From positions 38,656 through 102,655 of the forward strand of contig CAWBRS010000010.1 of assembly GCA_963791345.1 (NCBI GenBank): 64,000 nucleotides of DNA, given 5' to 3'. Source of the DNA: an uncultured Thermoleophilia bacterium (GTDB lineage: Bacteria; Actinomycetota; Thermoleophilia; UBA2241). Each line of letters begins with the position of its first letter. The stretch's first letter is position 1. The notes under the pieces were generated by a model. The model was not told the origin of the DNA and did not search any database. It saw only the letters and a program-made list of their open reading frames with translations. The position numbers and the translations under genes were made by a program. Positions 15,212 through 35,210 of this stretch are shown here, piece after piece.

Positions 15212-16666
15212 ATGAAGTTCGTGGAGCTGCTCACCGACGCCCAAGTGACGCGCACGCACGAGGCCTCGCTCGAGGTGCTCGAGCGCGCCGGCATCCTCGT
15301 CCACAACGAGGCGGCGCGCGAGGTCCTCCGCGGGCACGGCTGCCGGGTCGACGGTCAGACCGGGCTCGTGCGCCTGCCCGCCGACGTGGTGGAGCGCGAG
15401 CGCGCCAAGGCGCCGGCGAGCTTCACCTTCCGCGGCCGCGACCCGCGCTTCGACCGCACGATCCCCGACGACGGCCCCATCGTCGTGACCGGCTCCTCGG
15501 CGCCCAACATCGTCGACCCGGCCACCGCGGTCGAGCGCCGCGCCACCTCGGGCGACATCGCCGCGATCGCCTACCTGGTCAACGAGCTGCCCGGCTTCGA
15601 CGTGTTCAGCATCTCGACGCTGGCCGACGACGCGCCTGCCGGTCAGCTCAGCCTGAGCCGCTTCTACCCGGCGCTCAAGAACTGCCTCAAACCGGTGCGC
15701 AGCAACACGCCGACCATGGACGACCTGTACCAGGTCGTCGAGCTCGGCGAGCTCATCGCCGGCGGCCCCGAGGCCTACCGGGAGCGGCCGCTCATCAACC
15801 ACCACTACTGCCCGATGGTGAGCCCGCTCACGATGGACGTCGAGTCCACCGAGGCGGTCATGTGGCTCACCGAGAAGGGCCTGCCCGTCTACACCACCGT
15901 CGTGCCGAACGCCGGCCTCACCGCGCCCATGACGCTGCTCGGCTGCCTCGTCGTCGGCAACGCGGAGTTTCTCGCTGTCACCGCCTTCCAGCAGATGGTC
16001 CGCGAGGGCACGCCGGTGATCTACGCGAGCCTGCCCACGGTCGCCGACATGCGCACCGGCGCCTACGCCCCGGGGGCGATCGAGACGGGCACACTGATCG
16101 CCGCGCAGGCGCAGCTCGCGCGGTTCTACAACGTGCCCTCGGGCGGCTACGTCGGCCTCACCAACGCGCACGCCAACGACGCCCAGTCGGGCTTCGAGAC
16201 CGGCATGAACACGGTGCTCGCCGTCTCGGCCGGGGCCACGCTGCTCAACATGGGCGGCCTCCTGAGCTCGCTCATGGCCTTCGACTTCGCCAAGTGCGTG
16301 ATCGACAACGAGATCGCCCTCATGGACAAGCGGGTGTGGCGTGGGCTCGAGTTCAGCGAGGAGAACCTCGCCGTCGACGAGATCATCGGGGCCGGACCGG
16401 GCGGCAGCTACATGAGCCGCAAGCACACCTCGGCGCGCATGAAGACGACGGCCGTGCTGCCGCGGCTCGCGGCCCGCGACATGCGCGCCCAGTGGGAGCA
16501 GGCGGGGCGCCCCGACATCCACGGGCGGGCCGCGGCCGAGGCGCGGCGCATCCTCTCACGGCCGAACCCCGTCGTCTGGGGCGAGGAGCTCGACCGCCGC
16601 ATCCGCGACCGCTTCCCCGGGCTCGTGGCCGGCGACGTCGTGGTGCCGGAGGCGGCGGGCGTGTAG
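15212..16666 (+). CDS. MttB-superfamily (trimethylamine methyltransferase family, COG5598) methyltransferase, non-pyrrolysine member
   Basis: ATG 15212, 484 aa. It has the typical family opening LTDAQVTRTHEASLEVLERAGILVHNEAAREVLRGHGCRVD..VRLPADVVERERAKAPASFTFRGRDP. The ORF is uninterrupted with no internal TAG. Ends in TAG. Confidence 0.8.
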   Translation: MKFVELLTDAQVTRTHEASLEVLERAGILVHNEAAREVLRGHGCRVDGQTGLVRLPADVVERERAKAPASFTFRGRDPRFDRTIPDDGPIVVTGSSAPNIVDPATAVERRATSGDIAAIAYLVNELPGFDVFSISTLADDAPAGQLSLSRFYPALKNCLKPVRSNTPTMDDLYQVVELGELIAGGPEAYRERPLINHHYCPMVSPLTMDVESTEAVMWLTEKGLPVYTTVVPNAGLTAPMTLLGCLVVGNAEFLAVTAFQQMVREGTPVIYASLPTVADMRTGAYAPGAIETGTLIAAQAQLARFYNVPSGGYVGLTNAHANDAQSGFETGMNTVLAVSAGATLLNMGGLLSSLMAFDFAKCVIDNEIALMDKRVWRGLEFSEENLAVDEIIGAGPGGSYMSRKHTSARMKTTAVLPRLAARDMRAQWEQAGRPDIHGRAAAEARRILSRPNPVVWGEELDRRIRDRFPGLVAGDVVVPEAAGV

Positions 16667-16761
16667 GCGAGCGGGCGCGCGGGTCGACACCGCGACGCAG
16701 CCGAGGTCCGGCCGGGCCGGACCATGACGACGGTAAACAGACGGACCCAAAGGGGGACCTG

Positions 16762-17409
16762 ATGGCGGACACAGAGATCTTCGCGAAGCTCAAGCAGGCC
16801 GTGATCGACCAGGACGAGGACGCTGTGCTGGCCGCGGTCGACGAGGCCCTCGCCGGCGGCGTCGAAGCCAAGGCGGTCATCGACCAGGGGCTCCTGCCGG
16901 GCCTCAACGTCATCGGCGAGCAGTTCGAGTGCGAGGACATCTTCCTGCCCGAGCTCATGCAGGCGGCGCTGGCCTTCCAGTCGGCGATGGTCATCCTCGA
17001 GCCGAAGATCAAGGAGAGCGGGGCGGAGGGCCCCAAGAAGGGCAAGGTCGTGCTCGGCACCGTCAAAGGCGACCTGCACTCCATCGGCAAGAACATCCTG
17101 AAGCTCCTCTACGAGACCTCGGGCTTCGAGGTCTGGGACCTCGGCATCGACGTCGACCTGTTCCAGTTCGTCGACAAGGCGAAGGAGGTCGACGCCGACA
17201 TCATCGCCATGTCGGCCTTGCTGACGACGACCCTGGTCGGGCAGAAGGACCTCATCGAGGCGCTCACGGACCAGGGCACGCGCGACCGGTACAAGGTGCT
17301 GATCGGCGGCGGCGCGACAACGAAGGAGTGGGCCGACACGATCGGCGCCGACGGCTGGGCGGCGAGCGCCTACGAGGCCGTGACCCTGTCCGCGACGCTG
17401 GTCGCCTGA
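16762..17409 (+). CDS. Corrinoid (cobalamin-binding) methyl-carrier protein, MttC/MtbC/MtgC-like
   Basis: 215 aa with an N-terminal helical cap (IFAKLKQAVIDQDEDAVLAAVDEAL..G). The B12-binding domain has the DxHxxG motif (GDLHSIGKN) and MSALLTTT. Confidence 0.9.
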   Translation: MADTEIFAKLKQAVIDQDEDAVLAAVDEALAGGVEAKAVIDQGLLPGLNVIGEQFECEDIFLPELMQAALAFQSAMVILEPKIKESGAEGPKKGKVVLGTVKGDLHSIGKNILKLLYETSGFEVWDLGIDVDLFQFVDKAKEVDADIIAMSALLTTTLVGQKDLIEALTDQGTRDRYKVLIGGGATTKEWADTIGADGWAASAYEAVTLSATLVA

Positions 17410-17449
17410 GGCGGCGGTCCGCGATCCCCACGATCACGAGGAGCACGAG

Positions 17450-18832
17450 ATGATCGACCTTATCGAGGTCTTCGAGCGCGCCGAGAGCGGCCCGCTCACC
17501 TCCGAGACCGACTACTACATGAAGCGTTACGTCCCCAAGCTCAGCGAGGTGATCGCGCGCCACAAGGTCAAGTGGGACAAAGCGACCATCATCAACACCG
17601 ACGACGCGCTCACCGACGCGGTCTTCGAGGCGGCCGTCGACCTGATCGCCGAGGCCGGCGCGTACTGCCCCGAGACCAACCGCGTCATGCAGTTCACCCG
17701 GGACGAGATCGTCACCGCCTGCGCGCAGTGCCCGAAGGCGGCCACGTTCGGCGAGGGCCGTGAGCGCAAGACGATGTACGGTCGCCGCCCCGACACCACG
17801 GACGACCGCCCGTGGGTGCACGTCGGCGGCGGCATCTACACGACCGACGAGCAGGTCTACGTGGACACCGTCGAGAAGATGGCGTCCTTCGACATCGTCG
17901 ACTCGGTGAGCGTGCCCTCGATCCTGCACCTGCGTGGCAAGGACGCGCGCGTACGTTCGCCGCAGGAGATCCTCGTGGCCTGCAAGACGGTGCGCCTGGC
18001 GCGCGAGGGCATCCGCCGCTCGGGGCGCGCCGGCCTGCCGATCATCAACGGCATCTCGGCCGCCTCACAGCCGGCCTCGATGTTCGCCGCGAGCTACCCC
18101 GATTTCGGTCTGCGTCCGAGCGACGGCTTCCTCATCGACTTCCTCAGCGAGATGGTCGTCGGCTACGAGGCCCTGCAGAAGGTCGCCTTCTACAACAGCA
18201 TCAGCGCCAACATCGGCTCGACCTCGACGCCGCTCTTCGGCGGCTACGCCGGCGGCGCCGAGGGCATCGCCGTGCAGGCGACCGCCTACATGATCATGGG
18301 CACGCTGATCTTCCGCGGCAGCTACCACTACAACGCCCCGCTGCACAGCAAGCTGCACCTGAGCTCGACCAGGCCCCTCATCTGGGCGATCGCCATGTCC
18401 AACGCCGCCGTCGGCCGCAACATGGGCTACCCGATGGTCAACCTTCCCTACCTCGGCGGCGGCTCGGGCACGAAGCAGTACCACTACGAAATGGCGTGCT
18501 ATATGCTCGCCGTTGTGACATCGGGTGGAAACGTCTTCTCGGGGCATCCGGCCATGGCCGTCCAGGCGGACTCGCTCGTGCCCGACGACCACAAGTTCCA
18601 CGCCGAGATCGGCCTCGCCGCCGCGAAGCTCACGCGCGCCCAGGCCGAGCCGCTCGCGCAGAAGCTCTTCCCGCTGTTCGGCGACAAGCTCAAGGACCCG
18701 GACAAGGGCCTCACGTTCCAGGAGGTCTACGACATGAAGACCAAGCGGATCGCCAGCGCCGACTACCAGACGGCGATGGACGAGGTCCGCAGCGAGCTGG
18801 CCGACATGGGTCTCGAGGTGCCGGTCTCGTGA
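17450..18832 (+). CDS. MtmB-superfamily (monomethylamine methyltransferase family) protein, non-pyrrolysine member
   Basis: 460 aa, similar in length to archaeal MtmB (~458 aa) and collinear with it as I recall the sequence. Examples are PLFGGYAGGAEGIAVQATAYMIMG versus PIFGGYAGGIEETTIVDVATHINA, and the C-terminus GLTFQEVYDMKT..DEVRSELADMGLEV versus GKTFQECYDVKT..GARKKLEDLGLVF. The region equivalent to the Pyl site reads RAGLPIINGISAASQ with no TAG. Confidence 0.8.
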   Translation: MIDLIEVFERAESGPLTSETDYYMKRYVPKLSEVIARHKVKWDKATIINTDDALTDAVFEAAVDLIAEAGAYCPETNRVMQFTRDEIVTACAQCPKAATFGEGRERKTMYGRRPDTTDDRPWVHVGGGIYTTDEQVYVDTVEKMASFDIVDSVSVPSILHLRGKDARVRSPQEILVACKTVRLAREGIRRSGRAGLPIINGISAASQPASMFAASYPDFGLRPSDGFLIDFLSEMVVGYEALQKVAFYNSISANIGSTSTPLFGGYAGGAEGIAVQATAYMIMGTLIFRGSYHYNAPLHSKLHLSSTRPLIWAIAMSNAAVGRNMGYPMVNLPYLGGGSGTKQYHYEMACYMLAVVTSGGNVFSGHPAMAVQADSLVPDDHKFHAEIGLAAAKLTRAQAEPLAQKLFPLFGDKLKDPDKGLTFQEVYDMKTKRIASADYQTAMDEVRSELADMGLEVPVS

Positions 18833-19740
18833 CGGGACTCACTCCCGAGGCGGCGATCGCCCGCATCGACGACTGGCGCGGCAAGGCCGTCGACTGGCAG
18901 GAGATCGGCGGCGGCATCACCAACCACAACTACCTGATCACCGTCGACGAGGGCCGGGGCGGCAAGTACGTGCTGCGCATACCCGGCGCCGGCACCGACA
19001 CGTTCATCGACCGCGGCCGCGAGCTCGGCAATCACGAGTCGACGGCCGCGGCCGGCGTCTCGCCGCCGCTGCTGCACGTGCTCGAGCCCGAGAAGTGCAC
19101 GGTCGTGCCGTTCATCCAGGGTGAGACGATGCACCCCGAGACGCTCGCCGGCCACCCTGACCGGCTCGAGAAGGTGGTCGACGTCATCAGGACCTACCAC
19201 GACAGGGCCACCTTCTCCAACGACACGAGCGTCTTCCCGATGATCCGCCGGTACTTGCAGATGGCCGCCGAGGTGAAGGCGTGGTTTCCGCCCGACTGGC
19301 CGCGCCTCATGGCCGTCGGCGCCGAGATCGAGGCAGCGATGGGGCGCGCCGCGCCGCGCCCCGTCGCCTGCCACAACGACCTGCTCTCCGAGAACTTCAT
19401 CCTCGACGGCGACGGCCGGATGTGGCTCATCGACTGGGAGTACGGCGGCGTGAACGACCCGTACTTCGACCTCGGTGACTTCTGCGTCGAGCACCCGCTC
19501 TCGCGCGACGAGGAGCGCCTCATCATCACCAGATACTGCGGCGAGATGCAGGAGCACCGTTTCCACCGCATGCTCCTGCACAAGATCGTCGCCGACCTGT
19601 GGTGGAGCATCTGGGCGTTCATCCAGGAGCGGGTGTCACGGCTCGACTTCGACTACCGCGCGTACGGCACCGCGCGCCTCGACCGTCTGCGCGGCAACGC
19701 CGCCGACCCGGAGTACCCCACGTGGCTCGCCACGGTGTAG
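18829..19740 (+). CDS. Choline/ethanolamine kinase family protein (copy 1)
   Basis: GTG 18829 overlaps the mtmB-like stop (GTGA). It has the Brenner motif ACHNDLLSENFI and a complete choline-kinase signature LIDWEYGGVNDPYFDLGDFCVE. Ends in TAG. Confidence 0.85.
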   Translation: MTGLTPEAAIARIDDWRGKAVDWQEIGGGITNHNYLITVDEGRGGKYVLRIPGAGTDTFIDRGRELGNHESTAAAGVSPPLLHVLEPEKCTVVPFIQGETMHPETLAGHPDRLEKVVDVIRTYHDRATFSNDTSVFPMIRRYLQMAAEVKAWFPPDWPRLMAVGAEIEAAMGRAAPRPVACHNDLLSENFILDGDGRMWLIDWEYGGVNDPYFDLGDFCVEHPLSRDEERLIITRYCGEMQEHRFHRMLLHKIVADLWWSIWAFIQERVSRLDFDYRAYGTARLDRLRGNAADPEYPTWLATV

Positions 19741-19816
19741 GCGGGCGCCCGCACGGGCGCCCCGGAAGGTGCGCCGGCCGTTCTTGGGCGGCCGCGACAC
19801 GGATCGGGAGAAGCAC

Positions 19817-20629
19817 ATGAGCGACGAGGCCACTCACCCAGCCGGCCAGGTCGGCGACGAGGTCGGCGTCGGCACCCCCGACCCCGACCTCGCCAAGGTC
19901 TTCGAGGACGAGGCGTTGCGCGTGGTCGAGGCCGGCGACGCCCAGGGCGTCACCCTGCGCGTCATCGGCGCCCTGGCCTTCCACCACCACTGCCCGGAGT
20001 TCGCCTTCATGCAGGCGAAGTTCAACCGCGTCTACACCGACATCGACTTCGCCGGCTACGGCAAGCAGGACCGCGCGATCCGCGCGCTGTTCGTGTCCCT
20101 CGGCTACGACGAGGATCTGGAGATCAACGCCTTCCACGCCGAGGGCGGCCGCCTCATCTTCAACCACCCCGGCAAGCAGATCCACGTCGACGTGTTCATG
20201 GACCGCCTCTACTTCTGCCACGAGATCCCCTGGAAGGGGAGGCTCGAGGTCGACTCGCCCACCATCCCGCTGGCCGAGCTGCTGCTCGAGAAGATGCAGA
20301 TCGTGAAGATCAACGAGAAGGACATCATCGACACGATCATGCTCCTGCGCGAGCACGAGATCGGCGCCGACGACGAGGAGCACATCAACTCGGCGCGCGT
20401 GTCCAAGCTGTGCGCCGGGGAGTGGGGCCTCTGGCGCACGACGACCATGAACCTCGACAAAGTGCGGGAGTACCTCCCCCATCTCGACCTGGACGAGGAG
20501 GACAAGAGGGTGGTGTCGCAACGCGTGGCCGAGCTGTTGAGCGCGATGGACGACTACCCCAAGGGCACCAAGTGGAAGCTGCGCGCCAGGGTGGGCGACA
20601 AGAAACGCTGGTACAACGAGATCGACTGA
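19817..20629 (+). CDS. Conserved hypothetical protein, possible Pol-beta-type nucleotidyltransferase fold (copy 1)
   Basis: 270 aa. LRVIGALAFHHH...RVYTDIDFAGY resembles the G-x(n)-DxD nucleotidyltransferase core. It is paralogous to 27464..28279. The function is not recognised. Confidence 0.5.
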   Translation: MSDEATHPAGQVGDEVGVGTPDPDLAKVFEDEALRVVEAGDAQGVTLRVIGALAFHHHCPEFAFMQAKFNRVYTDIDFAGYGKQDRAIRALFVSLGYDEDLEINAFHAEGGRLIFNHPGKQIHVDVFMDRLYFCHEIPWKGRLEVDSPTIPLAELLLEKMQIVKINEKDIIDTIMLLREHEIGADDEEHINSARVSKLCAGEWGLWRTTTMNLDKVREYLPHLDLDEEDKRVVSQRVAELLSAMDDYPKGTKWKLRARVGDKKRWYNEID

Positions 20630-20656
20630 AGGGTCCACCGGAGAGGCGGCAGGTAC

Positions 20657-21658
20657 ATGGCATTCTGGAAGAAGAAGGACGGCGGTGACGGCAAGCGCGT
20701 CCGCTTGTTCTACGCGACCGACATCCACGGCTCCGAACGCACGTACCGCAAGTTCATCAACGCCGCCAAGTTCTACAAGGTCGACCACGTGGTCATGGGC
20801 GGCGACATCATGGGCAAGTTCCTCATCCCGATCGTCGACGAGGGCGGCGGGCGCCACCGCGTCACGCTCCAGGAGGATCTCACCCATGTCGAGGGCGATC
20901 AGGCTCTCGGCGAGCTCAAGGAGCGCATCGAGACGCTCGGCTTCTACCACGTGACCGTGACCGAGGACGAGCTGCGCGAGATGCAGAGCGACCAGAAGAA
21001 CATCGACGAGGCTTTCCGGCGCGAGGCGCACGCCCGGCTCGAGCGGTGGATCGCCTTCGCCGACGAGCGCCTGGACGGAACGGGGGTGAAGTGCTATGTG
21101 ACGGGCGGCAACGACGACCCGCAGGACCTGCTCGATCTGCTCGACGCGGCGCAGAGCGAGCACGTCGTGAACTGCGAGGAGAAGGTCGTCCTCCTCGAGG
21201 ACCAGTACCCCATGGCGAACTGCGGCTACAGCAACCCGACGCCGTGGAAGACGCCGAGGGAGACCGACGAGGAGACCCTGGAGCAGTTGCTCGAGAAGTC
21301 GGTGGAGGGCATCGACGATTTCACCAGCGCCATCTTCAACATGCACGTCCCTCCGTACGATTCCACGCTCGACGACTGCCCCAAGCTGGACTGGTCGACC
21401 GACCCGCCGATGCCGGTCGTCATCGCCGGCGTGCCGCAGAGCGCTCCGGCGGGCAGCACGGCGGTGCGCAAGGTCGTCGAGAAGTACCAGCCGCTCGTGC
21501 AGCTCACGGGGCACATCCACGAGTCCCGCGGTCTCGTCAAGGTCGGACGCACGACGGTGATCAACCCCGGCAGCGAGTACGGAGAGGGCATCCTGCGCGG
21601 CTGCATCTTCACGCTCGAGCCGGGTAAGGTGGTCGGCTACCAGATGACCTCGGGGTGA
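20657..21658 (+). CDS. Calcineurin-like metallophosphoesterase (copy 1)
   Basis: 333 aa with motifs ATDIHGS, GGDIMGK, GGNDD and GHIHES. Confidence 0.85.
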   Translation: MAFWKKKDGGDGKRVRLFYATDIHGSERTYRKFINAAKFYKVDHVVMGGDIMGKFLIPIVDEGGGRHRVTLQEDLTHVEGDQALGELKERIETLGFYHVTVTEDELREMQSDQKNIDEAFRREAHARLERWIAFADERLDGTGVKCYVTGGNDDPQDLLDLLDAAQSEHVVNCEEKVVLLEDQYPMANCGYSNPTPWKTPRETDEETLEQLLEKSVEGIDDFTSAIFNMHVPPYDSTLDDCPKLDWSTDPPMPVVIAGVPQSAPAGSTAVRKVVEKYQPLVQLTGHIHESRGLVKVGRTTVINPGSEYGEGILRGCIFTLEPGKVVGYQMTSG

Positions 21659-21726
21659 CGACGCGGGGGGCCGCGGTCGCCGGGGATCCGGGAGTCGAGA
21701 GAGTCAACCGGAACTGGGGGTAACGC

Positions 21727-23370
21727 ATGGCAACAGTCGCAGCCAAGCCGGAGGTCTTCAGCCGTAAGGCCTCGGGGCTCTCCAGGGTGATGTCGCCCTG
21801 GTCGGCGTACATGTACAACTTCCTGACCATGGGCGTGATCTTCCCGTGGACGTTCGTGTGGGCGCCGGCGGCGTTCCCGGGCGTCTCCGTGTGGCAGGCA
21901 TGCCTCTACGCCATCCTGCTCGAGCTGCCCATCGCCCTCGCCTACGTCTGGATGGCGACCGCGATGCCGCGCTCCGGCGGGGACTACGTCTTCCAGAGCC
22001 GCGTGCTCGGCGGGGCCATCGGCTTCCCGATCGTGATGAGCGGCTTCGTGATCTGGATCGTGCAGTGGGTCGCCCTGGCCGGCTGGCTCCTCGCCACCCT
22101 GGGCGTGGCGCCGCTGTTCATGGGGCTCGGCTACTACTACGAGAGCACCAGCCTCATCGACGCCGCCGTGTGGGCGCAGGGAGCGCAGGGCAAGGTCGTC
22201 ATCAGCATCATCGGCGCGTTCCTCATGGCGCTGCTGCTCGTGACGGGCTTCAAGAACTACGTGCGCCTGCAGTACTTCATGTTCGCGGCCACCGGCATCC
22301 TGGTCGTGATCTTGCTCGTGCAGTTCCTGCGCACCACCCCGGCCGAGTTCGCCGAGGCGATGAACAAGTTCTCCCTGTTCGTCGACGGCCGCGAGGACTA
22401 CTACAGCTTCATCCAGAAGGACGTGGCCGACGCCGGGGTGGACCTGATGCCCAAGTTCGCGCTGGGGGCCACGCTACTCGCCATCCCGATCGTCTGGACG
22501 AGCCTGCAGTGGGCGACCTACAGCGTGCAGCAGGGCGGCGAGATCAAGGGCGCCCGCGTCTTCAAGAACCAGATGTTCATCATCGTCGGCTCCATGATCT
22601 CGGTGGGCGTCGTCCTGGCCCTCATCGCGTGGGCCGAGGAGCGGGCCGTGGGCACCGAGTTCTTCAACGCAGTCTCCCACTCGTACTACTACCTGGTCAG
22701 CTCCTCGGGAGAGGGCATCGGCAGCGTCCTGCCCTTCCCCGGCATGTTCGCCATCGTGATCACGGCGAACCCCATCATCGTCGTCCTGACCGCGGTGAGC
22801 TTCATGCTCGCCTCGTTGCAGATCACCTGCAACTGCTACATCGGCATGACCCGCATCATGGTCGGCATGTCGCTCGACCGCACGCTGCCCGCGTTCCTCT
22901 CCAAGATCAGCCCGCGCTTCCGTTCGCCGGCGATCGCGCACTGGATCTACTTCGCCTTCGGGTGCTTCGCGATCTACGGCTACAACTACTGGGTCGACTG
23001 GTACAGGCTGACGCTCGGCGTCACCTTCGCCTGCGGGTACGTGTTCGTGGTCAGCTGCCTCGCGGCGGCGCTGATGCCCTACAGGGCCAAGGCGCTCTAC
23101 GATGCTTCGCCGGGCGCCAAGTACACGCTGGGCGGCTTCCCGCTGGTCACGATCTTCGGCGTCATCGGGTTCGTCTTCGGCGGCGCGGCGCTCGTCGCGT
23201 TCCTCTGGAACCCGAACTACGGCCTGCGCGGCGAGTCTCCGTACTGGGGCTACATCATGGTCGGCAGCATCTTCATGGTCTGCCTCGTCGGCTACTGGAT
23301 CGGCAGGGCCTACAACAAGAGCCGGGGCATCGACGTCAACTACGCCTTCCTCGAGGTGCCGCCGGAGTGA
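21727..23370 (+). CDS. APC-superfamily amino acid/amine permease (copy 1)
   Basis: 547 aa with about 12 or more TM segments. It carries AMPRSGGDYVFQSRVLGG, typical of APC transporters. Confidence 0.8.
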   Translation: MATVAAKPEVFSRKASGLSRVMSPWSAYMYNFLTMGVIFPWTFVWAPAAFPGVSVWQACLYAILLELPIALAYVWMATAMPRSGGDYVFQSRVLGGAIGFPIVMSGFVIWIVQWVALAGWLLATLGVAPLFMGLGYYYESTSLIDAAVWAQGAQGKVVISIIGAFLMALLLVTGFKNYVRLQYFMFAATGILVVILLVQFLRTTPAEFAEAMNKFSLFVDGREDYYSFIQKDVADAGVDLMPKFALGATLLAIPIVWTSLQWATYSVQQGGEIKGARVFKNQMFIIVGSMISVGVVLALIAWAEERAVGTEFFNAVSHSYYYLVSSSGEGIGSVLPFPGMFAIVITANPIIVVLTAVSFMLASLQITCNCYIGMTRIMVGMSLDRTLPAFLSKISPRFRSPAIAHWIYFAFGCFAIYGYNYWVDWYRLTLGVTFACGYVFVVSCLAAALMPYRAKALYDASPGAKYTLGGFPLVTIFGVIGFVFGGAALVAFLWNPNYGLRGESPYWGYIMVGSIFMVCLVGYWIGRAYNKSRGIDVNYAFLEVPPE

Positions 23371-25472: not shown

Positions 25473-25545
25473 GCGCGCCGACGCGCGACACCAGGGGGAC
25501 GGCACCATGGTGCCGGCCGTAACCATTCGACAGGAGGGTCAACCT

Positions 25546-27463: not shown

Positions 27464-28279
27464 ATGGCGCAGACGCCGTTCATCCTGCCGAAGGACATCC
27501 CGATCGCCGAGTACCCCGGCCCCGAGGTCTTTCTGAGCGAGGGCAAGCGACTCGTCGAGGAGGGCGAGAAGCGCGGCATCGTGATGCGGGTCATGGGCCC
27601 CCTCGCGCTCCACTACTACTTCCCGGACCAGATCGATCTGTACGCACGGCTCGAGCGCCTCGGCGAGCGCTACTTCACCGACATCGACTACGCGGCGTAC
27701 GGCAAGGGTCGCGGCAAGATGCGCGACTTCATGAAGGACATGGGCTACGAGTGCGACCAGGAGACCATGGTCATGTCCGGCAAGACGCGGCACATCTACT
27801 ACGCCGGCGCCGTGCCGATGATCGACGTCTTCTTCGACAAGCTCGACTACTGCCACGAGGTGGACTACACGGGCCGGCTCGAGAAGGACCCGTGGTCCGT
27901 GCCGCTCTCCGACATCCTGCTGCAGAAGCTGCAGATCGTCGAGATCAACGACAAGGACCTCAAGGACATCGAGTACCTCTTCGTGACCTCCGAGCTGGGC
28001 AGCGACGACGAGCACAAGATCAACATGGACTACATCGCCCAGCGCTTCGCCGGCGACTGGGGATTCTGGTACACCGCGACGCAGCTCAACCTGCCCAAGG
28101 TGAAGGAGCACTGTGCGCAGGTCCCCGCGCTGACACCCGAGATGTGTGAGCGCATCAAGGCGCAGGCCGACAAGCTGCTGGCGCGGGTCGACGCCGAGCC
28201 CAAGACCAAGGCGTGGAACAAGCGCGCCAAGAAGGGCGCTTCGAAGACCTGGTACAACGAGGGGTTCTCCGACTGGTGA
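27464..28279 (+). CDS. Conserved hypothetical protein, possible nucleotidyltransferase fold (copy 2)
   Basis: 271 aa. MRVMGPLALHYY...RYFTDIDYAAYGK, with shared blocks against 19817..20629 (..LLEKMQIVKINEKDI.. versus ..LLQKLQIVEINDKDL.., and C-terminal K.WYNE). Confidence 0.5.
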   Translation: MAQTPFILPKDIPIAEYPGPEVFLSEGKRLVEEGEKRGIVMRVMGPLALHYYFPDQIDLYARLERLGERYFTDIDYAAYGKGRGKMRDFMKDMGYECDQETMVMSGKTRHIYYAGAVPMIDVFFDKLDYCHEVDYTGRLEKDPWSVPLSDILLQKLQIVEINDKDLKDIEYLFVTSELGSDDEHKINMDYIAQRFAGDWGFWYTATQLNLPKVKEHCAQVPALTPEMCERIKAQADKLLARVDAEPKTKAWNKRAKKGASKTWYNEGFSDW

Positions 28280-28294: not shown

Positions 28295-28364
28295 TGTGCG
28301 GTTCTGTGCGAGGCTGCAGTTGACACAGCCCGCCCCGTCGGTACAATGTGTGCGACTTTGTGCG
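28295..28364 (+). promoter_or_regulatory. Promoter (TTGACA-16-TACAAT) flanked by two pairs of TGTGCG direct repeats, for deoR copy 2
   Basis: TGTGCG occurs at 28295-300 and 28305-310 upstream. TTGACA is at 28320-25 and TACAAT at 28342-47. A downstream pair (TGTGCG-N4-TGTGCG) lies within 28348-28364. Confidence 0.6.
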
Positions 28365-28395
28365 GTTTGACGACGTGAACGGAGGCCCCGCGGTC

Positions 28396-29190
28396 GTGCC
28401 GTCACAAGACGTGCCCGAGCTCCACGAGATGATCCCGGCGCAGCGGCGCACCCGCATCTCGGAGCTCCTGAAGGAGCGCCGCGCCGTGCGCGTCTCCTCC
28501 CTCAGCGAGGACCTCGGCGTCTCCGAGATGACGATCCGCCGCGACCTCGAACGCCTCGAGGGTGAGGGCGTGCTCGTGCGCACGCACGGGGGCGCCGTGC
28601 TCCGGCGGCGGATCGGTGAGGAGCCCCTCTACCGCGACAACGTCGCCGCCAACGCCGAGCAGAAGCGTCGCATCGCCCAGCGTGCGGCGGCCCTCATCGA
28701 GCCCGGCGAGAGCGTGTTCCTCAGCGCCGGCACGACGGCCGCCCAGGTCCTGCGCCACGTCGACCCCGCCCTCGAGGCGCGCGTCGTCACCCACAACGTC
28801 GGCGCCCTCGCCGAGGCCCAGGGTCTGGGCCTCGAGGTGATCCTCGTCGGCGGGCTCTACAGGCCGCGCTCGAACGCCGTCGGCGGCGCCGGGGCGGTCG
28901 AGCAGATCGGCCGCTTCCACGCCAGCCGCATGTTTCTCGGGGTCGACGGACTCGACCTCGAGGAGGGTCTGACCACCCCGACCGTCGGCGTGGCCGCCAT
29001 CGAGCGCGCCATGCTCGACCAGACCCGCGGCGAGGTCGTCGTGCTCGCCGACCGCAGCAAGATCGGCGTCGTCGCCGACGTCGGCATCTGCGGGTTCGAC
29101 CGCGTCGACACCGTCATCGTGGACGACGGTGTCGACGAAGCCGTGCGCGACGAGCTGACGTCGATGGGCGTCCGCTGCATCGTGGTATGA
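28396..29190 (+). CDS. DeoR family transcriptional regulator (copy 2)
   Basis: GTG lies 10 nt after GGAGG. The protein and DNA are near-identical to copy 1, including identical runs of more than 50 nt, e.g. the last ~65 nt of both genes. Confidence 0.85.
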   Translation: MPSQDVPELHEMIPAQRRTRISELLKERRAVRVSSLSEDLGVSEMTIRRDLERLEGEGVLVRTHGGAVLRRRIGEEPLYRDNVAANAEQKRRIAQRAAALIEPGESVFLSAGTTAAQVLRHVDPALEARVVTHNVGALAEAQGLGLEVILVGGLYRPRSNAVGGAGAVEQIGRFHASRMFLGVDGLDLEEGLTTPTVGVAAIERAMLDQTRGEVVVLADRSKIGVVADVGICGFDRVDTVIVDDGVDEAVRDELTSMGVRCIVV

Positions 29191-29302: not shown

Positions 29303-30502
29303 ATGCACGAACGCAACATGCTCGAAGACCTGGTCGCCGTCAGCCCCGGCATGGAGATCTGGTGGGACTCCTCGCCGGTCATCCTCGACAACTGGTACAA
29401 GAAGATGCTCGCCAAGGCCGACCCCGGCGACCACGAGGTCCTCAAGGCCCAGTTCACGCGCATGTACAACGCGGACGACCCGATGGGCCAGCTCTTCCGC
29501 GGCGTCACGACCAACCCGCCGCTCTCGCTGCAGGCGATCAAGGACGATCCGCCGCGCTGGCAGGCCGAGGCGGCGAAGATCCTCGCCGCGAACGACGGGC
29601 TCGACACCGAGGGCCTCTTCTGGGAGCTGTACAAGCAGGTCGTCAAGCAGGGCTCCGACATGTTCCTGCCCCTGTACGAGGCCTCCGGGCACAAGGAGGG
29701 CTTCCTCTCCGGCCAGGTCGACCCGCGGAGCGCGTTCGACAAGGACGCGATGCTCGCCCAGGCGCTCGAGATCCGCGCCATCAACCCCAACGTGATGATC
29801 AAGGTGCCCGGCACCAGAGAGGGCTACGACATCATCGAGGCTCTCACCGCCAAGGGCATCCCGACCAACAACACGCTCACCTTCGTCCTGCCGCAGCTCA
29901 TGGACTGCGCGCGGTCGGTGCGTCGTGGCCTCGAGAAGGCCAAGGCCGACGGCGTCGACCTCTCGGGCTGGCGCTCGGTGATCACCCACATGGAGGCTCG
30001 CTACGGCGACCTCGGCGGCCTGCGCGAGGCCGGCGCCGAGAAGGGCATCGAGATCACCGAGGGCGACGTCCGCCTGGCCGAGCTGGCGATCTTCAAGAAG
30101 GCCTATCGCCTGGTCAAGGAGGGCGGCTACCAGAGCAAGATGCTCTCCTGCTCGCTGCGCCTCGGCCCGGTCGTCGACGGCAAGACGAAGGTCTGGCACC
30201 TCGAGGAGAAGGCCGGCGCCGACGTCGTCGTCACCTGCCCGCCGAGCCTCATCGACGAGCTCATCAACTTCCCGACCCCCGAGGACATCAAGTTCGAAGA
30301 GGGCCGCATCGCCGTCGACCCGCCCAAGGAGGTCATGGACAAGCTCATGCGCATCCCGTACTTCGAGCGCGCCTACGAGGTCGACGGCTACACGCGCGAC
30401 GAGTACAACACCCACCCCGCGCTGGTGAAGACCGCCGAGGCCTTCTCCAAGGCCACCAACGAGATGGTCGCGTTCGCCGGCAGCTGCCTCGCGAACGCCT
30501 GA
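29303..30502 (+). CDS. Transaldolase-family protein (long, 399 aa)
   Basis: GVTTNPPLSL, GQVDPRSAFDKDAM, the Schiff-base lysine context VMIKVPGTREG, and IPTNNTLTF. AAGGGGGA RBS. Confidence 0.8.
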   Translation: MHERNMLEDLVAVSPGMEIWWDSSPVILDNWYKKMLAKADPGDHEVLKAQFTRMYNADDPMGQLFRGVTTNPPLSLQAIKDDPPRWQAEAAKILAANDGLDTEGLFWELYKQVVKQGSDMFLPLYEASGHKEGFLSGQVDPRSAFDKDAMLAQALEIRAINPNVMIKVPGTREGYDIIEALTAKGIPTNNTLTFVLPQLMDCARSVRRGLEKAKADGVDLSGWRSVITHMEARYGDLGGLREAGAEKGIEITEGDVRLAELAIFKKAYRLVKEGGYQSKMLSCSLRLGPVVDGKTKVWHLEEKAGADVVVTCPPSLIDELINFPTPEDIKFEEGRIAVDPPKEVMDKLMRIPYFERAYEVDGYTRDEYNTHPALVKTAEAFSKATNEMVAFAGSCLANA

Positions 30503-30527
30503 CCACGACCCAGAAAGGACGGCGAGA

Positions 30528-31610
30528 ATGGCCGACATCAAGGACAAGATCCTCCCCTGGATCTGGACCGCCCCCGAGTACAACACCGGCATCCTCGACA
30601 AAGCCTGGGCACAGCCCGAGTGCGGTCGGATGATGCTGAACGAGAACCCCGTGCCCCCGTCGGACGCCGTGGTCGATGCCATCACCGAGATGGCGAAGAA
30701 GGGCAACCGCTACCCCGACCGCGCCTACCGCCTGCGCACCAAGCTGGGCGACCTGCACGGCGTGGCGGCCGAGAACATCGCGCTGGCCAACGGCTCCTCG
30801 GAGACGATCGACGCGATGATGCGCATCTTCCTCAAGCCGGGCGACGAGTTCCTCTGCTCCAACCCGACGTTCGAGATGTTCCCGTCGCGCGCCGGTCTCT
30901 GCAACGCCACGACGGTGCAGATCCCGCTGCGTGAAGAGGACCTGCAGTACGACGTCGACGGGATGCTGGCGGCGGTCAACGAGAAGACCAAGCTGATCCT
31001 CATCATCAACCCGAACAACCCGACGGGCATCTTCATCGACGACGCCGACCTCATCAGGTTCTGTGAGCTCGGGATCCCGCTCTGCATCGACGAGGCCTAC
31101 CTGGACTACCACCCGCAGGTCGAGGCCAAGATCGACCTCGTCAAGCAGTACCCGCACGTGTTCCTCTCGCACACCTTCTCGAAGGCCTTCGGCCTGGCCG
31201 GCGTGCGCTTCGGCTACGTCGTCGCCGACCCGACGCTCGTCGAGGCCTTCAACCTCATGTACCTGCCCTGGAACCTCAGCCTGATGGCGATCGCCGCCGC
31301 CGAGGCCATCCTCGACACGGGTGAGGTGAAGGAGAAGGTCGTCTACAACAACGAGTGGATGGCCACCTTCGTCGCGGAGCTCGAGGCCAAGGGCCTCAAG
31401 CCGTTCCCGCCGCACGGCAACTACATGCTGGTCGACGCCTCGGTGACCGGCAAGACGAGCGCCGAGATCGTCCAGGCCGGCATGGAGATGCAGAAGCTCT
31501 TCCTCAAGACCATCAAGCCGATCAACGGCAAGGACGGCTACTTCCGCGTCACGCCGGGCACGCCCGAGGAGAGCGAACGCTTCGTGCGCTTCGTGCGGGA
31601 GTACTTCTGA
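30528..31610 (+). CDS. Class I/II PLP-dependent aminotransferase of the HisC/CobD (histidinol-phosphate aminotransferase) family
   Basis: 360 aa with LNENPVPP, NPNNPTG, IDEAYLDY, and TFSKAFGLAGVRFGY (PLP lysine). Confidence 0.85.
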   Translation: MADIKDKILPWIWTAPEYNTGILDKAWAQPECGRMMLNENPVPPSDAVVDAITEMAKKGNRYPDRAYRLRTKLGDLHGVAAENIALANGSSETIDAMMRIFLKPGDEFLCSNPTFEMFPSRAGLCNATTVQIPLREEDLQYDVDGMLAAVNEKTKLILIINPNNPTGIFIDDADLIRFCELGIPLCIDEAYLDYHPQVEAKIDLVKQYPHVFLSHTFSKAFGLAGVRFGYVVADPTLVEAFNLMYLPWNLSLMAIAAAEAILDTGEVKEKVVYNNEWMATFVAELEAKGLKPFPPHGNYMLVDASVTGKTSAEIVQAGMEMQKLFLKTIKPINGKDGYFRVTPGTPEESERFVRFVREYF

Positions 31611-31715
31611 GACGTCTGACGCACGCACGACGCCCGGCCGCAGCCTCCGTCCTCCCCGGGTACGCCCGGGAGGGCGGGGGCTGACGGGCTTCCACTCGCG
31701 AACGAAAGGACCCAG

Positions 31716-33741
<2,026 letters not shown>

Positions 33742-33800
33742 ACGACGACCCTGCGAGCACGGACATCCCACAACGATTCACGGTGCGGAGGTCACCGAGC

Positions 33801-35210
33801 ATGAAGATATTGACCAGGATGGGTGACTCCTCGAACGTCGAGCTCACCCCGGACGAACTGCGTCAGGAGTTCGTCACGGGGTCCGAGGCCGCGGCGGTCA
33901 AGGCGAAGATCCCCACGCTGACCGAGAACGAGGTCGACTTCCTCGTCGACATGTTCTCGGCGCCGACGCGACTCTGGGGCGTGCAGCGCGGCAACGAGGT
34001 CGTGATGACCAAGGACGGCTGCGTCAACGCGCTCAACTCGTCGCGCATGTCGAGCGGCGTCGTCGCGCCGGTCAACCGCGAGGTGGGCGTGCGCCTCTTC
34101 GAGTCGATGCTCGGCTTCGACTCGATGGAGGTCTCGCACAACGACTACTCCGTGAAGCCGCAGCGCTTCCTCAAGGCCCTGGAGCAGCTGCACATGGAGC
34201 TTCTGCAGGAGACCACCATCTTCCCGCTGCTCTACGGCTTCATGCCCAACCTCGGGCTCTACTACCGCCCGGACGGGTCCTTCGAGAACCCCTCCGACCT
34301 GCTGCCCCTGGGCAAGATCGCCGAGGCCCGTCGCACGCAGGAAGAGGCGCTCGAGGCGTGCATGGAAGACTGCATCGAGATGAGCGACTGCATGGTCGCG
34401 ATGGGCGCCGACGGCATCGACTACGACACCGTCGCGTCGACCGGTGACGCCGAGTTCCTCGCCGTGCTCAAGACGACCGAGCACGTCGCCAACGAGACGG
34501 GCCTGCCGGTCGAGATCGGCATGTCGTCGGAGATGGTCCTCGGCTTCCACGGCCAGCTCGAGTACAACGGCGTCCGCCTCGCCGGCCTCTGGCCGCACCA
34601 GCAGCTCGACCTCTGCGAGCAGGCGGGCTGCGCGATCTTCGGCCCCGTCTGCAACACGAACACCAGGAAGACGGTGCCCTGGAACCTCGCCCGCGCGCTG
34701 ACGTTCGTGAAGGCCTGCACCGAGGTCGCCAAGATCCCGATCCACCCGAACGTGGGCATGGGCGTCGGCGGCGTGCCGATGTTCGAGACGCCTGCCGTCG
34801 ACGTCGTCACGCGCTGCAGCGCGGCGATGATCGAGATCGGCAAGGCCGACGGGTTGTAGGTGGGCACGGGCGACCCTGCCGGCATGCACCTGGCGCATCT
34901 GCTGGCCTCATCGATGGGTGGCATCCGGGCCGCTGGAGACCTGGTGGCGAGGATGCAGCTCAACAAGAAGATGAGGATCGACGACGCCAAGAGGTACGTG
35001 GCCGACAAGCTTCACGTGACGCCGCTCGACCTCTCCGATCCGACGCTGATGAGAGGTCTCAGGGAAGAGCTCGACATCGGCACGATCACCGGCGTCCCCG
35101 GTGTCGCGAAGGGCATCGCGGCGAAGGTACGCATCGCCGAGCTGCTCGACATCGAGATCAACTCCGTCGAGCAGTTCAAGAAGAAGACGGGCCTCGTCTC
35201 GGCGAAGTAG
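33801..35210 (+). CDS. mtbB: Dimethylamine:corrinoid methyltransferase MtbB homologue with an in-frame TAG (34857-34859) at the pyrrolysine position
   Basis: ATG 33801 lies 9 nt after GGAGG. Track ORFs 33783..34859 and 34860..35210 share one frame and are separated only by TAG. The joined ~469-aa product is collinear with archaeal MtbB as recalled ([54 protein letters not shown], ..[16 protein letters not shown].., [27 protein letters not shown]). Confidence 0.8.

Follow-up and report, generated by a model that had tools for sequence, protein, structure and literature searches.

A putative choline-type N-demethylation island with three methyltransferase superfamilies and one corrinoid protein gene in an uncultured Thermoleophilia bacterium

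Introduction

The dimethylamine system of Methanosarcina consists of MtbB, MtbC, and MtbA together with RamA. In the acetogen E. limosum, the choline (phosphocholine):THF system MthK/MthB/MthC/MthA phosphorylates choline before demethylating it and ends at dimethylaminoethanol; the substrate of MthB is phosphocholine, and the gene for the activase, RamQ, is located apart from the others (Jiang et al. 2025, PMC12155760). RamQ, MtqC, and MtqA are common to several methyltransferases of this organism, with one MtqC and one MtqA serving MtpB, MtcB, and MtyB, all of the MttB family (PMC12155760). The MtqB/MtqC/MtqA system of Methanococcoides methylutens Q3c acts on tetramethylammonium and choline by means of MtqB, a non-Pyl MtmB homologue whose gene directly adjoins its corrinoid gene; MT2 and RamA, both shared, have their genes at other loci (Kashyap et al. 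2026, PMC13044021). In Ruegeria, MtgC/MtgD serve both betaine demethylation and methionine synthesis (PMC12478193).

Here, we analyzed a 64-kb stretch of DNA from an uncultured Thermoleophilia bacterium (Actinomycetota), hereafter called the window, which carries an island resembling the MthKBC and MtqBC systems. As in the Mth system, the gene of a non-Pyl MttB-superfamily enzyme adjoins a small corrinoid protein gene and one for an APH-type kinase, the activase gene is not in the cluster, and, judging from the kinases, phosphorylation would precede demethylation. The island differs in having no MthA-type THF methyltransferase in or near it, in the missing Arg312 equivalent of its MttB-like protein, in its high-GC soil actinobacterial host, and in its additional MtmB-like and Pyl-MtbB enzymes, which would allow demethylation past the first methyl group. 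With the Mtq system it has in common the MtmB homologue gene directly beside a corrinoid gene, the choline link, and, presumably, the sharing and separate placement of MT2 and RamA. That system is, however, archaeal, uses coenzyme M as acceptor, and has no kinase, whereas the carrier gene of the island is flanked by a second methyltransferase gene from another superfamily.

The likeness to Methanosarcina lies in mtbB, with its Pyl-encoding UAG at the canonical site and strong full-length similarity (PF09505, TIGR02368). Unlike in Methanosarcina, there is no adjacent mtbC and no MtbA, Pyl-MttB, or Pyl-MtmB in the window, and mtbB sits in a bacterium amid kinases, phosphoesterases, and sugar-phosphate enzymes; here, its product may act on a derivative of N-methyl-ethanolamine instead of DMA. 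The shared-carrier systems of E. limosum and Ruegeria combine one corrinoid protein with several methyltransferases, as proposed here, but the three E. limosum enzymes come from one superfamily (MttB), whereas each of the three candidates of the island represents a different, unrelated superfamily, and one of these depends on Pyl.

Results

Because the G+C content of the window is 65-78%, genes were called by third-position GC (GC3). The host is an uncultured soil and peat actinobacterium. The four core genes, encoding an MttB homologue, a corrinoid protein, an MtmB homologue, and the UAG-containing mtbB, are all co-stranded (Table 1). Pfam scans, alignments, and a six-frame search bore out an earlier sequence-only reading, according to which MttB-like, MtmB-like, and mtbB genes occur with a single corrinoid gene, and its start codons and Shine-Dalgarno sequences for the four genes agree with ours.

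Table 1. Features of the island (window coordinates)
Feature	Coordinates	Strand	Evidence
Promoter-like site TTGACA-16-TATGAT directly followed by direct repeat TGTGCGACTTTGTGCG (putative DeoR operator), head of unit 1	13081..13125	+	
DeoR-family regulator 1; true start probably downstream of 13104	13104..13952	+	Pfam HTH_DeoR + DeoRC
APH-family phosphotransferase, candidate MthK-like small-molecule kinase	13999..15207	+	PF01636; weak homoserine kinase type II match
MttB-superfamily methyltransferase, non-Pyl (Leu in place of MttB's Pyl), distinct subfamily; S/G/N/L at MtgB substrate-binding positions	15212..16666	+	PF06253 MTTB (Pfam scan, E 5e-80); TIGR02369 (353 bits, below cut-off 525); residue test
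Corrinoid (cobalamin-binding) protein, sole one in window; clade adjoining MtmB-like genes	16762..17409	+	B12-binding_2 + B12-binding domains (Pfam scan); DLHSIG (DxHxxG) motif
MtmB-superfamily methyltransferase, non-Pyl; Ile199 aligned to Pyl202 of M. barkeri MtmB	17450..18832	+	PF05369 MtmB (full-length, E 3e-65)
Choline/ethanolamine-kinase family protein 1; GTG start overlaps MtmB-like stop	18829..19740	+	PF01633
Unknown protein 1, paralogue of 27464-28279; predicted nucleotidyltransferase-like fold	19817..20629	+	
Metallophosphoesterase 1	20657..21658	+	Weak Metallophos matches
APC-family permease 1	21727..23370	+	Pfam
Choline/ethanolamine-kinase family protein 2	23502..24437	+	Pfam
Metallophosphoesterase 2	24525..25472	+	Pfam
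APC-family permease 2	25507..27279	+	Pfam
Unknown protein 2, no Pfam family, > 900 homologues	27464..28279	+	
Promoter-like site TTGACA-16-TACAAT + TGTGCGACTTTGTGCG repeat, head of unit 2 (contains mtbB)	28320..28364	+	
DeoR-family regulator 2	28348..29190	+	
Transaldolase/FSA-family protein	29303..30502	+	
HisC-like class I/II aminotransferase	30528..31610	+	Histidinol-phosphate aminotransferase family, score below cut-off
Transketolase, frameshift-split near 32819-32824	31716..33741	+	
mtbB, dimethylamine-type methyltransferase; one in-frame TAG only (UAG, Pyl), 34857-34859, canonical Pyl site; stop codon also TAG	33801..35210	+	PF09505, TIGR02368 (match over 33783/33801-35210)
Accessory genes: SDR, two glutamine-synthetase-like ligases, aldehyde:ferredoxin oxidoreductase (frameshifted), GntR/FCD regulator, APC permease (frameshifted)	35437..44197	+	
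HAD-family hydrolase; directly 3' of mtbB in compact cluster form	44322..45257	+	

Pfam scans of all GC3-supported ORFs in the 64 kb revealed neither a second B12-binding protein nor any URO-D, MtrH, pterin-binding, or RACo/RamA domain. When the 64 kb were searched in six frames by tblastn, two corrinoid seeds had their sole match at 16762-17409, and seeds for RACo and MeTr gave zero matches; an Anaerolineales locus, serving as the positive control, was matched by both of the latter. No tRNA genes were found in the window. The earlier statement that no activase or methyl acceptor transferase is recognizable in the window holds: RACo/RamA-type and MeTr-type genes are missing from both searches, URO-D and MtrH domains from the scanned ORFs. 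The suggestion that partners might be encoded elsewhere was answered in part: RamA/RACo-type genes sit on other contigs in five related cluster-bearing MAGs, whereas a methyl-corrinoid:acceptor methyltransferase (MT2) was not found in any cluster-bearing genome examined. The activase gap in the window is ordinary. Since separate placement of partner genes is normal in bacteria, as E. limosum illustrates, the absence of activase and MT2 from the window is unremarkable in itself.

Both transcription units start from the same near-consensus promoter with the TGTGCGACTTTGTGCG repeat, each copy in front of a DeoR paralogue, and the two regulators are 84% identical. The layout of promoter-like site and repeat upstream of DeoR is conserved in the 17 relatives inspected. 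In addition, the APH kinase gene stops 4 nt ahead of the start codon (ATG) of the MttB-like gene, and the GTG start of the next kinase gene overlaps the MtmB-like stop (GTGA); by these junctions, translation of either non-Pyl methyltransferase gene is coupled with that of an adjoining kinase gene.

Related loci were compared across ~50 Thermoleophilia/Actinomycetota genomes (species-level MAGs). The triad of MttB-like, corrinoid, and MtmB-like genes is present in all 47 related loci with enough flank, and Pyl-mtbB is kept in 29 of the 37 informative ones. An APH kinase accompanies the cluster in 42 of 47 loci and a choline/ethanolamine-type kinase in 30 of 37. Of 38 loci spanning 15 kb or more, 35 have exactly one corrinoid gene within about 10 kb. 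The compact layout is illustrated by relative L001, in which DeoR, APH, MttB, Corr, MtmB, ChoK, MPE, permease, MtbB, and HAD genes follow one another on one strand; the gene content separating the methyltransferases differs among relatives. This gene arrangement is not due to chance.

Discussion

We propose that the locus forms the core of a conserved catabolic island, under DeoR control, that removes methyl groups from a choline-type N-methylated amino alcohol in successive corrinoid-dependent steps, with substrates probably handled as phosphate esters. The APH-type and LicA-type kinases, each coupled to one non-Pyl methyltransferase gene, would prepare these substrates, and the metallophosphoesterases and APC permeases would help with uptake and processing. 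The non-Pyl MttB-subfamily, non-Pyl MtmB-subfamily, and Pyl MtbB enzymes, each presumably assigned to its own methyl group, would all deliver to one shared corrinoid protein, encoded between the MttB-like and MtmB-like genes. An ATP-dependent reductive activase and a presumably THF-dependent methyl-corrinoid:acceptor methyltransferase would be encoded outside the island. Our confidence in a choline-type (phospho-amino-alcohol) N-demethylation island with a shared carrier is evenly poised; on this reading, the cluster points to an undescribed route for the complete N-demethylation of a choline-like compound.

The earlier idea of a tri-, di-, and mono-N-demethylation line fails in its literal methylamine form, while such a series on a choline-type skeleton is still plausible. 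Roles of the non-Pyl MttB-like and MtmB-like proteins as TMA and MMA enzymes were rejected, as characterized non-Pyl relatives take quaternary amines. The MttB-like protein has no Arg312, which is reported to be conserved in MtcB, MtpB, MthB, and MtyB, and it lacks His348 as well, a residue kept less strictly in the four enzymes. By these residues it is not demonstrably MthB-like, and the Arg/His criterion lends no support to a phosphate- or carboxylate-bearing substrate. Because the acid-binding Arg/His of the characterized members is missing, the island is only a putative member of the MthKBC and MtqBC families.

The number of methyltransferases involved depends on mtbB, and to regard it as a dead gene cut off at its TAG, with two working methyltransferases only, seems to us extremely improbable. 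Neither pyl genes nor tRNA-Pyl turned up in the window or among the cluster loci retrieved, and several genes in the window are frameshifted; however, all 34 sequences have the in-frame TAG at the canonical Pyl site, the 112-116 codons 3' of it are 86-94% identical in protein with synonymous exceeding non-synonymous differences (822:316), and third-position GC remains high past it. A working MtbB might instead have an MtbC-like carrier of its own elsewhere, so that the carrier in the window would be cognate to the adjoining non-Pyl enzyme(s) only and two or three parallel systems would exist. We regard this as doubtful but worth serious weight. Four relatives (L031, L039, L053, and L060) have a second corrinoid gene, Corr2, beside the cluster, whose product is 38-40% identical to the first and reaches 225 and 214 bits with the Pyl-cognate model TIGR02370 (cut-off, 215 bits), compared with 199 for the window carrier. 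The mtbB of the window also lies in the separate, DeoR2-led unit, and in deltaproteobacterial relatives every methyltransferase has a carrier of its own. The window carrier groups with the corrinoid protein adjoining their MtmB-like genes (55-58% identity), while a second, MtgC-like carrier adjoins their orthologous MttB-like gene (62% identity); the latter type is absent from the window, where the MtmB-associated type alone remains. Yet most long loci have a single carrier nearby, the compact form has mtbB in a co-directional string with that carrier, service of several methyltransferases by one carrier is established in E. limosum, and promoter and operator are common to both units, with near-identical regulators. 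We infer from the operon-like synteny with one corrinoid gene in ~50 genomes that one carrier may serve all three methyltransferases, and the DeoR promoter and operator shared by both units support a common carrier, as does the retention of the MtmB-associated carrier type alone where deltaproteobacterial clusters have two carriers. Either a shared carrier or partners encoded elsewhere had been envisaged, and each gains partial support: single-carrier synteny speaks for the former and the activase genes of related MAGs for the latter, while MT2 was not located and a second corrinoid gene does exist in those four relatives.

The three enzymes could also belong to a different series, from glycine betaine through dimethylglycine and sarcosine to glycine, with the MttB-like protein taking betaine and the MtmB-like protein sarcosine. 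The orthologous pairs of Deltaproteobacteria, which have no kinases, instead adjoin a DMGDH/sarcosine-dehydrogenase-like gene, ETF, and an ABC importer; in L017, L023, and L030, GCV_T-SHMT fusion genes come after the MtmB-like gene; and the top NCBIfam match of the window carrier is MtgC, below its cut-off. We nevertheless consider the betaine series unlikely, given that the four glycine-betaine-binding residues of MtgB are all replaced, invariantly, in the MttB-like subfamily (Ser/Gly/Asn/Leu in our protein), that a true MtgB-like protein of another Thermoleophilia locus (L261) retains Y/R/H, and that the series leaves no role for the two widely kept kinase types or the phosphoesterases. Less likely again is a methylotrophy island of unrelated systems, e.g., quaternary-amine use and genuine dimethylamine use for nitrogen, with no linking pathway. 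The summed MtbB score (344 + 146 bits) does pass the DMA-methyltransferase equivalog cut-off of 369, the content between the methyltransferase genes is variable, and glutamine-synthetase-like genes lie 3' of mtbB in the window, but the linkage is kept across about 50 species, the regulatory elements are in common, and the window has no Pyl-MttB or Pyl-MtmB to complete a methylamine pathway.

Several further genes of the island recur in relatives. The kinase encoded at 18829-19740 is 46-47% identical to, and of the same family as, the kinase adjoining Corr-MtmB-like genes in a non-actinobacterial relative (L067), which, with the Mth and Mtq precedents, would tie the island to choline-type substrates. 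The gene for unknown protein 2, whose AF2 model resembles Pol-beta-type nucleotidyltransferases in fold and which has a conserved DxD, adjoins mtbB in several relatives. The accessory set beside mtbB, found in the window, L040, and L062 only, possibly represents a gamma-glutamyl-ethanolamide-type route. One of the related loci, L035, belongs to the bog_752 MAG. At Stordalen Mire, mtxB genes are expressed by Actinobacteriota, the most active representative named being the genus Bog-752, and Pyl mtbB is expressed by some Actinobacteriota MAGs (PMC10805028).

A single corrinoid carrier in a conserved cluster

Since the window has a G+C content of 65-78%, raw ORF lists were mostly noise, and genes were therefore called by third-position GC (GC3) together with frame periodicity. 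Pfam and NCBIfam searches bore out all the elements named in the sequence-only reading, and its start codons and ribosome-binding sites proved correctly positioned. That reading had also noted a single corrinoid protein and neither an activase nor an acceptor methyltransferase in the window, with which both kinds of search agreed. Among all GC3-supported ORFs of the 64 kb, Pfam scans detected only one B12-binding protein, and domains of the URO-D, MtrH, pterin-binding, and RACo/RamA types were absent. Six-frame tblastn, seeded with the 630-aa RACo, the 260-aa MeTr, and the corrinoid protein of the non-actinobacterial locus L067, plus a second corrinoid seed from the related locus L039, detected only one corrinoid gene in the window; neither the window nor any of the Thermoleophilia cluster loci contained a sequence resembling an activase or MeTr. 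The RACo and MeTr seeds did match, in that search, the Anaerolineales locus L064, whose MeTr-like and RamA-like genes neighbour MtmB-like and corrinoid genes.

Synteny analysis by tblastn among related loci revealed the MttB-like, corrinoid, and MtmB-like genes together in each of the 47 loci whose upstream sequence was long enough. Where at least 6.5 kb of downstream sequence was available (37 loci), mtbB was found in 29, always as separate N- and C-terminal matches, and a PF01633 kinase in 30. Exactly one corrinoid gene was present in 35 of the 38 loci of at least 15 kb. The single-carrier finding is real and strongly conserved, and no description of the single carrier or of the cluster architecture was found in the literature. 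An assembly artefact or chimera behind the co-localization was rejected, given that the cluster recurs in ~50 independent MAGs.

The + strand genes of the window form a near-continuous series from ~13.1 to 44.2 kb. This is an expanded form of the compact cluster of locus L001, which carries DeoR, APH, MttB-like, corrinoid, MtmB-like, choline-type kinase, metallophosphoesterase, permease, MtbB, and HAD genes on one strand. In the window, the kinase, phosphoesterase, and permease module is present twice; inserted genes encode an extra DeoR, a transaldolase, a HisC-like aminotransferase, and a transketolase 5' of mtbB and an SDR, two glutamine-synthetase (GS)-like ligases, an aldehyde:ferredoxin oxidoreductase (AOR), a GntR regulator, and a permease 3' of it. 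The transaldolase (FSA-like), aminotransferase, and transketolase between DeoR2 and mtbB are found again close to the cluster in L027, L039, and L053; speculatively, phosphoethanolamine could be transaminated by this set to glycolaldehyde phosphate and passed into pentose-phosphate chemistry. The 3' genes, with a regulator of the GntR/FCD type, appear to resemble the gamma-glutamyl-ethanolamide route of Streptomyces (GlnA4 type). Four window genes are split by frameshifts, which suggests long-read assembly indel errors rather than pseudogenes; the transketolase is unbroken in the relative L027. In three relatives, a fusion of GcvT aminomethyltransferase and serine hydroxymethyltransferase (SHMT; ~960 aa) lies directly 3' of the MtmB-like gene, while L039 has hydroxyacid dehydrogenase and glycerate kinase genes next to its cluster and L017, L023, and L031 contain homologous ORFs; all of these are serine-cycle-like enzymes.

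Coordinates of the features discussed and loci of the RamA/RACo-type genes
Feature	Genome or locus	Position	Remark
P-type ATPase	window	1858-4718	frameshift-split
Promoter 1, TTGACA-16-TATGAT	window	13081-13108	with repeat, 13081-13125
MttB-like	window	15212-16666	stop TAG 16664-16666
Corrinoid carrier	window	16762-17409	
MtmB-like	window	17450-18832	
Protein 1 of family without Pfam model	window	19817-20629	
Protein 2 of family without Pfam model	window	27464-28279	
Promoter 2, TTGACA-16-TACAAT	window	28320-28347	with repeat, 28320-28364
Transaldolase to transketolase	window	29303-33741	three genes
Transketolase	window	31716-33741	frameshift-split, junction ~32819-32824; stop TAG 33739-33741
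mtbB	window	33783/33801-35210	in-frame TAG 34857-34859; stop TAG 35208-35210
SDR to permease, 3' of mtbB	window	35437-44197	
AOR	window	39471-41401	frameshift-split
APC permease	window	42567-44197	frameshift-split
GcvT-SHMT fusion	L017	11640-14519	
GcvT-SHMT fusion	L023	11844-14693	
GcvT-SHMT fusion	L030	4350-7379	
Corrinoid-MtmB-like pairs	L067 (GCA_054039655.1)	6177-19476	two pairs, with choline-type kinase and Wood-Ljungdahl genes
RamA/RACo-type, L071	MFD10097.bin.2.18		cluster L044
RamA/RACo-type, L104	MFD09779.bin.2.149		cluster L014
RamA/RACo-type, L119	MFD04492.bin.3.7		cluster L023
RamA/RACo-type, L168	MFD01721.bin.1.253		cluster L022
RamA/RACo-type, L174	Co_metawrap_1062		cluster L018

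Two methyltransferases without pyrrolysine

The MttB-like protein is a full-length member of the MttB superfamily (PF06253/COG5598; PF06253 E 5e-80, profile positions 26-489 of 500). It scores 353 bits against TIGR02369, the model of the pyrrolysine (Pyl)-dependent trimethylamine methyltransferase, below the cut-off of 525, and alignment to structure 7XCL places Leu at the Pyl position. On these features, it is predicted not to be the Pyl-dependent enzyme MttB. The glycine-betaine-binding residues of MtgB are Y97, R312, H348, and F356, of which R312 is reported to be conserved, and H348 less so, in MtcB, MtpB, MthB, and MtyB (PMC13080624). At these columns, our protein has Ser, Gly, Asn, and Leu, which are invariant in 47 cluster loci and also found in the deltaproteobacterial MttB-like orthologues, while an MtgB-like protein of another Thermoleophilia locus retains Y, R, and H. 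On this binding-residue test, the reading as an MtgB acting on glycine betaine was rejected. Since all four residues are replaced, the protein represents a distinct subfamily, neither MtgB nor, by that comparison, demonstrably MthB. Its gene adjoins an APH-type kinase gene (within three genes), which lies directly 5' of it in 42 of the 47 relatives, a pairing like that of MthB and MthK (reference accessions WP_341455952.1 and WP_052237066.1). Unlike MthB, in which the acid-binding Arg312 is reported to be conserved, it has Gly at the equivalent column, as assigned by alignment to MtgB rather than to MthB itself. A search for APH kinase homologues aimed at Eubacterium limosum MthK returned only Thermoleophilia-type matches (at least 61% identity). 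Across the window, 47 related loci, L002, and L065, the subfamily shares the invariant motif VP[SAT]GGY[IV]GLTN[AS]H and lacks a counterpart of the Arg312/His348 acid-binding pair of characterized quaternary-amine methyltransferases.

The MtmB-like protein matches the MtmB profile (PF05369) end to end (E 3e-65). Its Ile199 aligns with Pyl202 of MtmB (structure 1L2Q), and this position is Ile or Leu in 116/116 homologues; lacking Pyl there, it is probably not the Pyl-dependent monomethylamine methyltransferase MtmB. As a non-Pyl member of PF05369 that adjoins its own corrinoid gene, it is like MtqB (ACT9XH_RS04775), a likeness that does not imply clade placement with MtqB. In the species-representative genome collection, 60 loci encode close relatives (88-97% identity), almost all of them in uncultured Thermoleophilia/Actinomycetota MAGs from soils, peat, and sediments; more distant ones (54-72%) occur in Deltaproteobacteria, Spirochaetota, and others.

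mtbB and its pyrrolysine codon

In the window, mtbB encodes a full-length MtbB (PF09505/TIGR02368) whose only in-frame TAG falls on the canonical Pyl site, in a context (DGL-TAG-VGTGD) shared with all 33 relatives (34/34 sequences). Over the 112-116 codons 3' of the TAG, third-position GC is still high, protein identity among relatives is 86-94%, and 26 ungapped comparisons gave 822 synonymous versus 316 non-synonymous differences. The frame beyond the TAG is under purifying selection. A pseudogene reading was rejected on the conservation of the TAG and the synonymous excess. ARAGORN found no tRNA-Pyl in the window and 52 related loci, and there were no pyl genes in the window or the cluster loci, so the decoding machinery must be encoded elsewhere. 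Neither in the window nor in most relatives does mtbB have a neighbouring corrinoid gene that could be a cognate mtbC. A literature search on pyrrolysine in Thermoleophilia returned no relevant report. TAG also serves as an ordinary stop in several window genes, including the MttB-like gene and mtbB itself; the genome uses TAG as stop yet must also decode it as Pyl.

One shared carrier or partners encoded elsewhere

For the shortage of partners, the sequence-only reading had offered two explanations, namely, that one carrier serves all three methyltransferases or that the partners are encoded elsewhere. The carrier has B12-binding_2 and B12-binding domains and a DLHSIG (DxHxxG) motif; it scores 198.9 against TIGR02370 (cut-off 215.3), and its best match is MtgC (228, cut-off 310). 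Pairwise identities and a neighbour-joining tree of ~200 residues without support values group it with those corrinoid proteins of Deltaproteobacteria (55-58% identity) and L067 (56%) whose genes immediately precede MtmB-like genes. Besides orthologous MttB-like (62%) and MtmB-like (70%) proteins, the deltaproteobacterial clusters have a second carrier, which adjoins the MttB-like gene and groups with MtgC-like carriers. That this related cluster has two carriers and the Thermoleophilia cluster one is the best comparative argument for sharing. The predominance of single-carrier loci also favours it, whereas four relatives (L031, L039, L053, and L060) weigh against it, having next to the cluster a further, divergent corrinoid gene that scores marginally higher on the Pyl-cognate model than the window carrier. 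An arrangement in which one carrier lies between methyltransferases of different superfamilies and very probably shares a regulon with Pyl-MtbB is unusual and can be tested.

In related genomes, the second explanation holds for the activase. A codon-biased two-motif scan of the genome collection (DIGTN ... GICGSG) uncovered RamA/RACo-type (COG3894) genes on other contigs of five related cluster-bearing MAGs, with 37-39% identity to the Anaerolineales RamA-like protein; that of L104, the one scanned with Pfam, has the Fer2 and RACo domain set. The 8-kb loci L071, L119, and L104 each include a further MttB-like or MtmB-like gene, and a KamA-like radical-SAM gene and EamA transporters are also present in L071 and L119. 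For the methyl-corrinoid:acceptor methyltransferase (MT2), no such placement emerged: a high-GC codon-biased motif scan gave at least 120 matches, and no cluster-bearing MAG was among the 120 listed, while a profile built from Thermoleophilia and Gaiellales MT2 found at least 80 relatives (at least 74% identity), none cluster-bearing among the matches listed. Canonical modules of MttB-like, corrinoid, MeTr-like, and RamA-like genes occur in other Thermoleophilia, Gaiellales, and Solirubrobacteraceae MAGs.

Both a shared carrier and the absence of an adjoining activase or MT2 are precedented in bacteria. In E. limosum, the APH-type kinase MthK phosphorylates choline, the non-Pyl MttB member MthB demethylates phosphocholine onto MthC, and the methyl group passes to THF via MthA, with a shared activase, RamQ; one MtqC and one MtqA are common to three MttB-family enzymes (PMC12155760). 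MtqB with MtqC demethylates tetramethylammonium and choline using shared MtbA and RamA (PMC13044021), and two processes in Ruegeria depend on one MtgC (PMC12478193). No Actinobacteria were found in the supplement of PMC12155760. The lack of an activase beside the cluster is ordinary.

The same actinobacterial lineages share a second conserved locus, represented by L071, L119, L140, and L143 (8 kb each). Where the flank suffices, it encodes a RamA-like activase, one or two more MttB-like proteins, a radical-SAM protein like lysine-2,3-aminomutase, and as many as four EamA transporters, and neither a corrinoid nor an MT2 gene occurs in the 8 kb. In L067, the two corrinoid-MtmB-like pairs and a choline-type kinase stand immediately beside Wood-Ljungdahl genes (ACS/CODH, CFeSP, MeTr, and RACo). 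The two paralogous proteins of the window that lack a Pfam model (37% identity) have >900 homologues, mostly in Thermoleophilia, and one copy adjoins mtbB in several relatives. The AF2 model (pLDDT 87) weakly resembles Pol-beta-type nucleotidyltransferases, e.g., ANT(2'') and MenT, with a conserved DxD, and a phmmer search of PDB sequences with protein 2 gave no match. As candidates for the missing MT2 or activase, these proteins were rejected, since the predicted nucleotidyltransferase-like fold is neither a TIM barrel nor an ASKHA/Fe-S protein.

Regulation and translational coupling

Two near-consensus sigma-70-type promoters, conspicuous in G+C-rich DNA, each stand 5' of one DeoR paralogue (DeoR1 and DeoR2, 84% identical) and are each followed directly by the direct repeat TGTGCGACTTTGTGCG. 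This layout is kept in the 17 relatives inspected. The sites are likely to form a putative autoregulated operator, and transcripts from the two promoters are possibly leaderless. Given the common promoter, repeat, and DeoR, the MttB-like-corrinoid-MtmB-like unit and the mtbB unit are very likely controlled by one type of regulator. In addition, the APH stop codon lies 4 nt 5' of the MttB-like ATG, and the MtmB-like stop overlaps the GTG start of the next kinase gene (GTGA); these tight junctions would translationally couple each non-Pyl methyltransferase gene to a kinase gene.

Substrate and proposed pathway

The APH and LicA-type kinases, metallophosphoesterases, HAD phosphatase, and APC permeases suggest N-methylated amino alcohols that are processed as phosphate esters. 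DeoR-family members typically sense phosphorylated ligands, and the HisC aminotransferase family acts on a beta-amino-alkyl phosphate; the regulators and the HisC-like protein therefore point the same way, as does a LicA-type kinase (46-47% identity) beside the corrinoid-MtmB-like pairs of L067. The composite reading we prefer, a choline-type island for stepwise N-demethylation through a shared carrier, has in our judgement an even chance of being right. By number of methyl groups, demethylation would run from the MttB-like protein through MtbB to the MtmB-like protein; by published activities, both non-Pyl enzymes would instead act on quaternary substrates and Pyl-MtbB on uncharged intermediates. 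A bolder version, which we consider rather unlikely, has all three MtxB superfamilies methylating one carrier, with MtbB acting on the di- or monomethylethanolamine (or its phosphate) left by the non-Pyl enzymes, not on free dimethylamine, and choline fully demethylated to (phospho)ethanolamine.

If the shared-carrier, choline-type reading is true, this would be the first cluster uniting three methylamine-methyltransferase superfamilies in one pathway, with a pyrrolysine enzyme inside a quaternary-amine pathway of Actinomycetota. If the bolder version is true, a complete route from choline to (phospho)ethanolamine would supply C1 and C2 assimilation in soil Actinomycetota that are neither methanogens nor acetogens, pyrrolysine would gain a new physiological role, and the carrier would be the first shared across superfamilies. 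The shared-carrier, choline-type reading, if true, would also name candidate enzymes for di- and monomethylethanolamine demethylation, which is physiological in Methanococcoides, its enzymes being unassigned in the literature cited. Two non-Pyl subfamilies present themselves for biochemistry, namely, the MttB type without the usual acid-binding residues and the tightly conserved MtmB type.

Occurrence in soils and peat

The cluster lineage is widespread in soils and peat (~50 species-level MAGs). Multi-omics data from Stordalen Mire place Actinobacteriota among the most active bacterial methylotrophs, with the genus Bog-752 as the most active representative, and some of their MAGs express Pyl-encoding mttB and mtbB (PMC10805028). 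Pyl methyltransferases in Actinobacteriota are thereby already on record at survey level. Given this spread and the activity of Bog-752, the pathway could consume choline-derived methyl groups on a significant scale and compete with trimethylamine- or methane-forming routes. The cluster is present in L035, a locus of a bog_752 MAG from Stordalen Mire.
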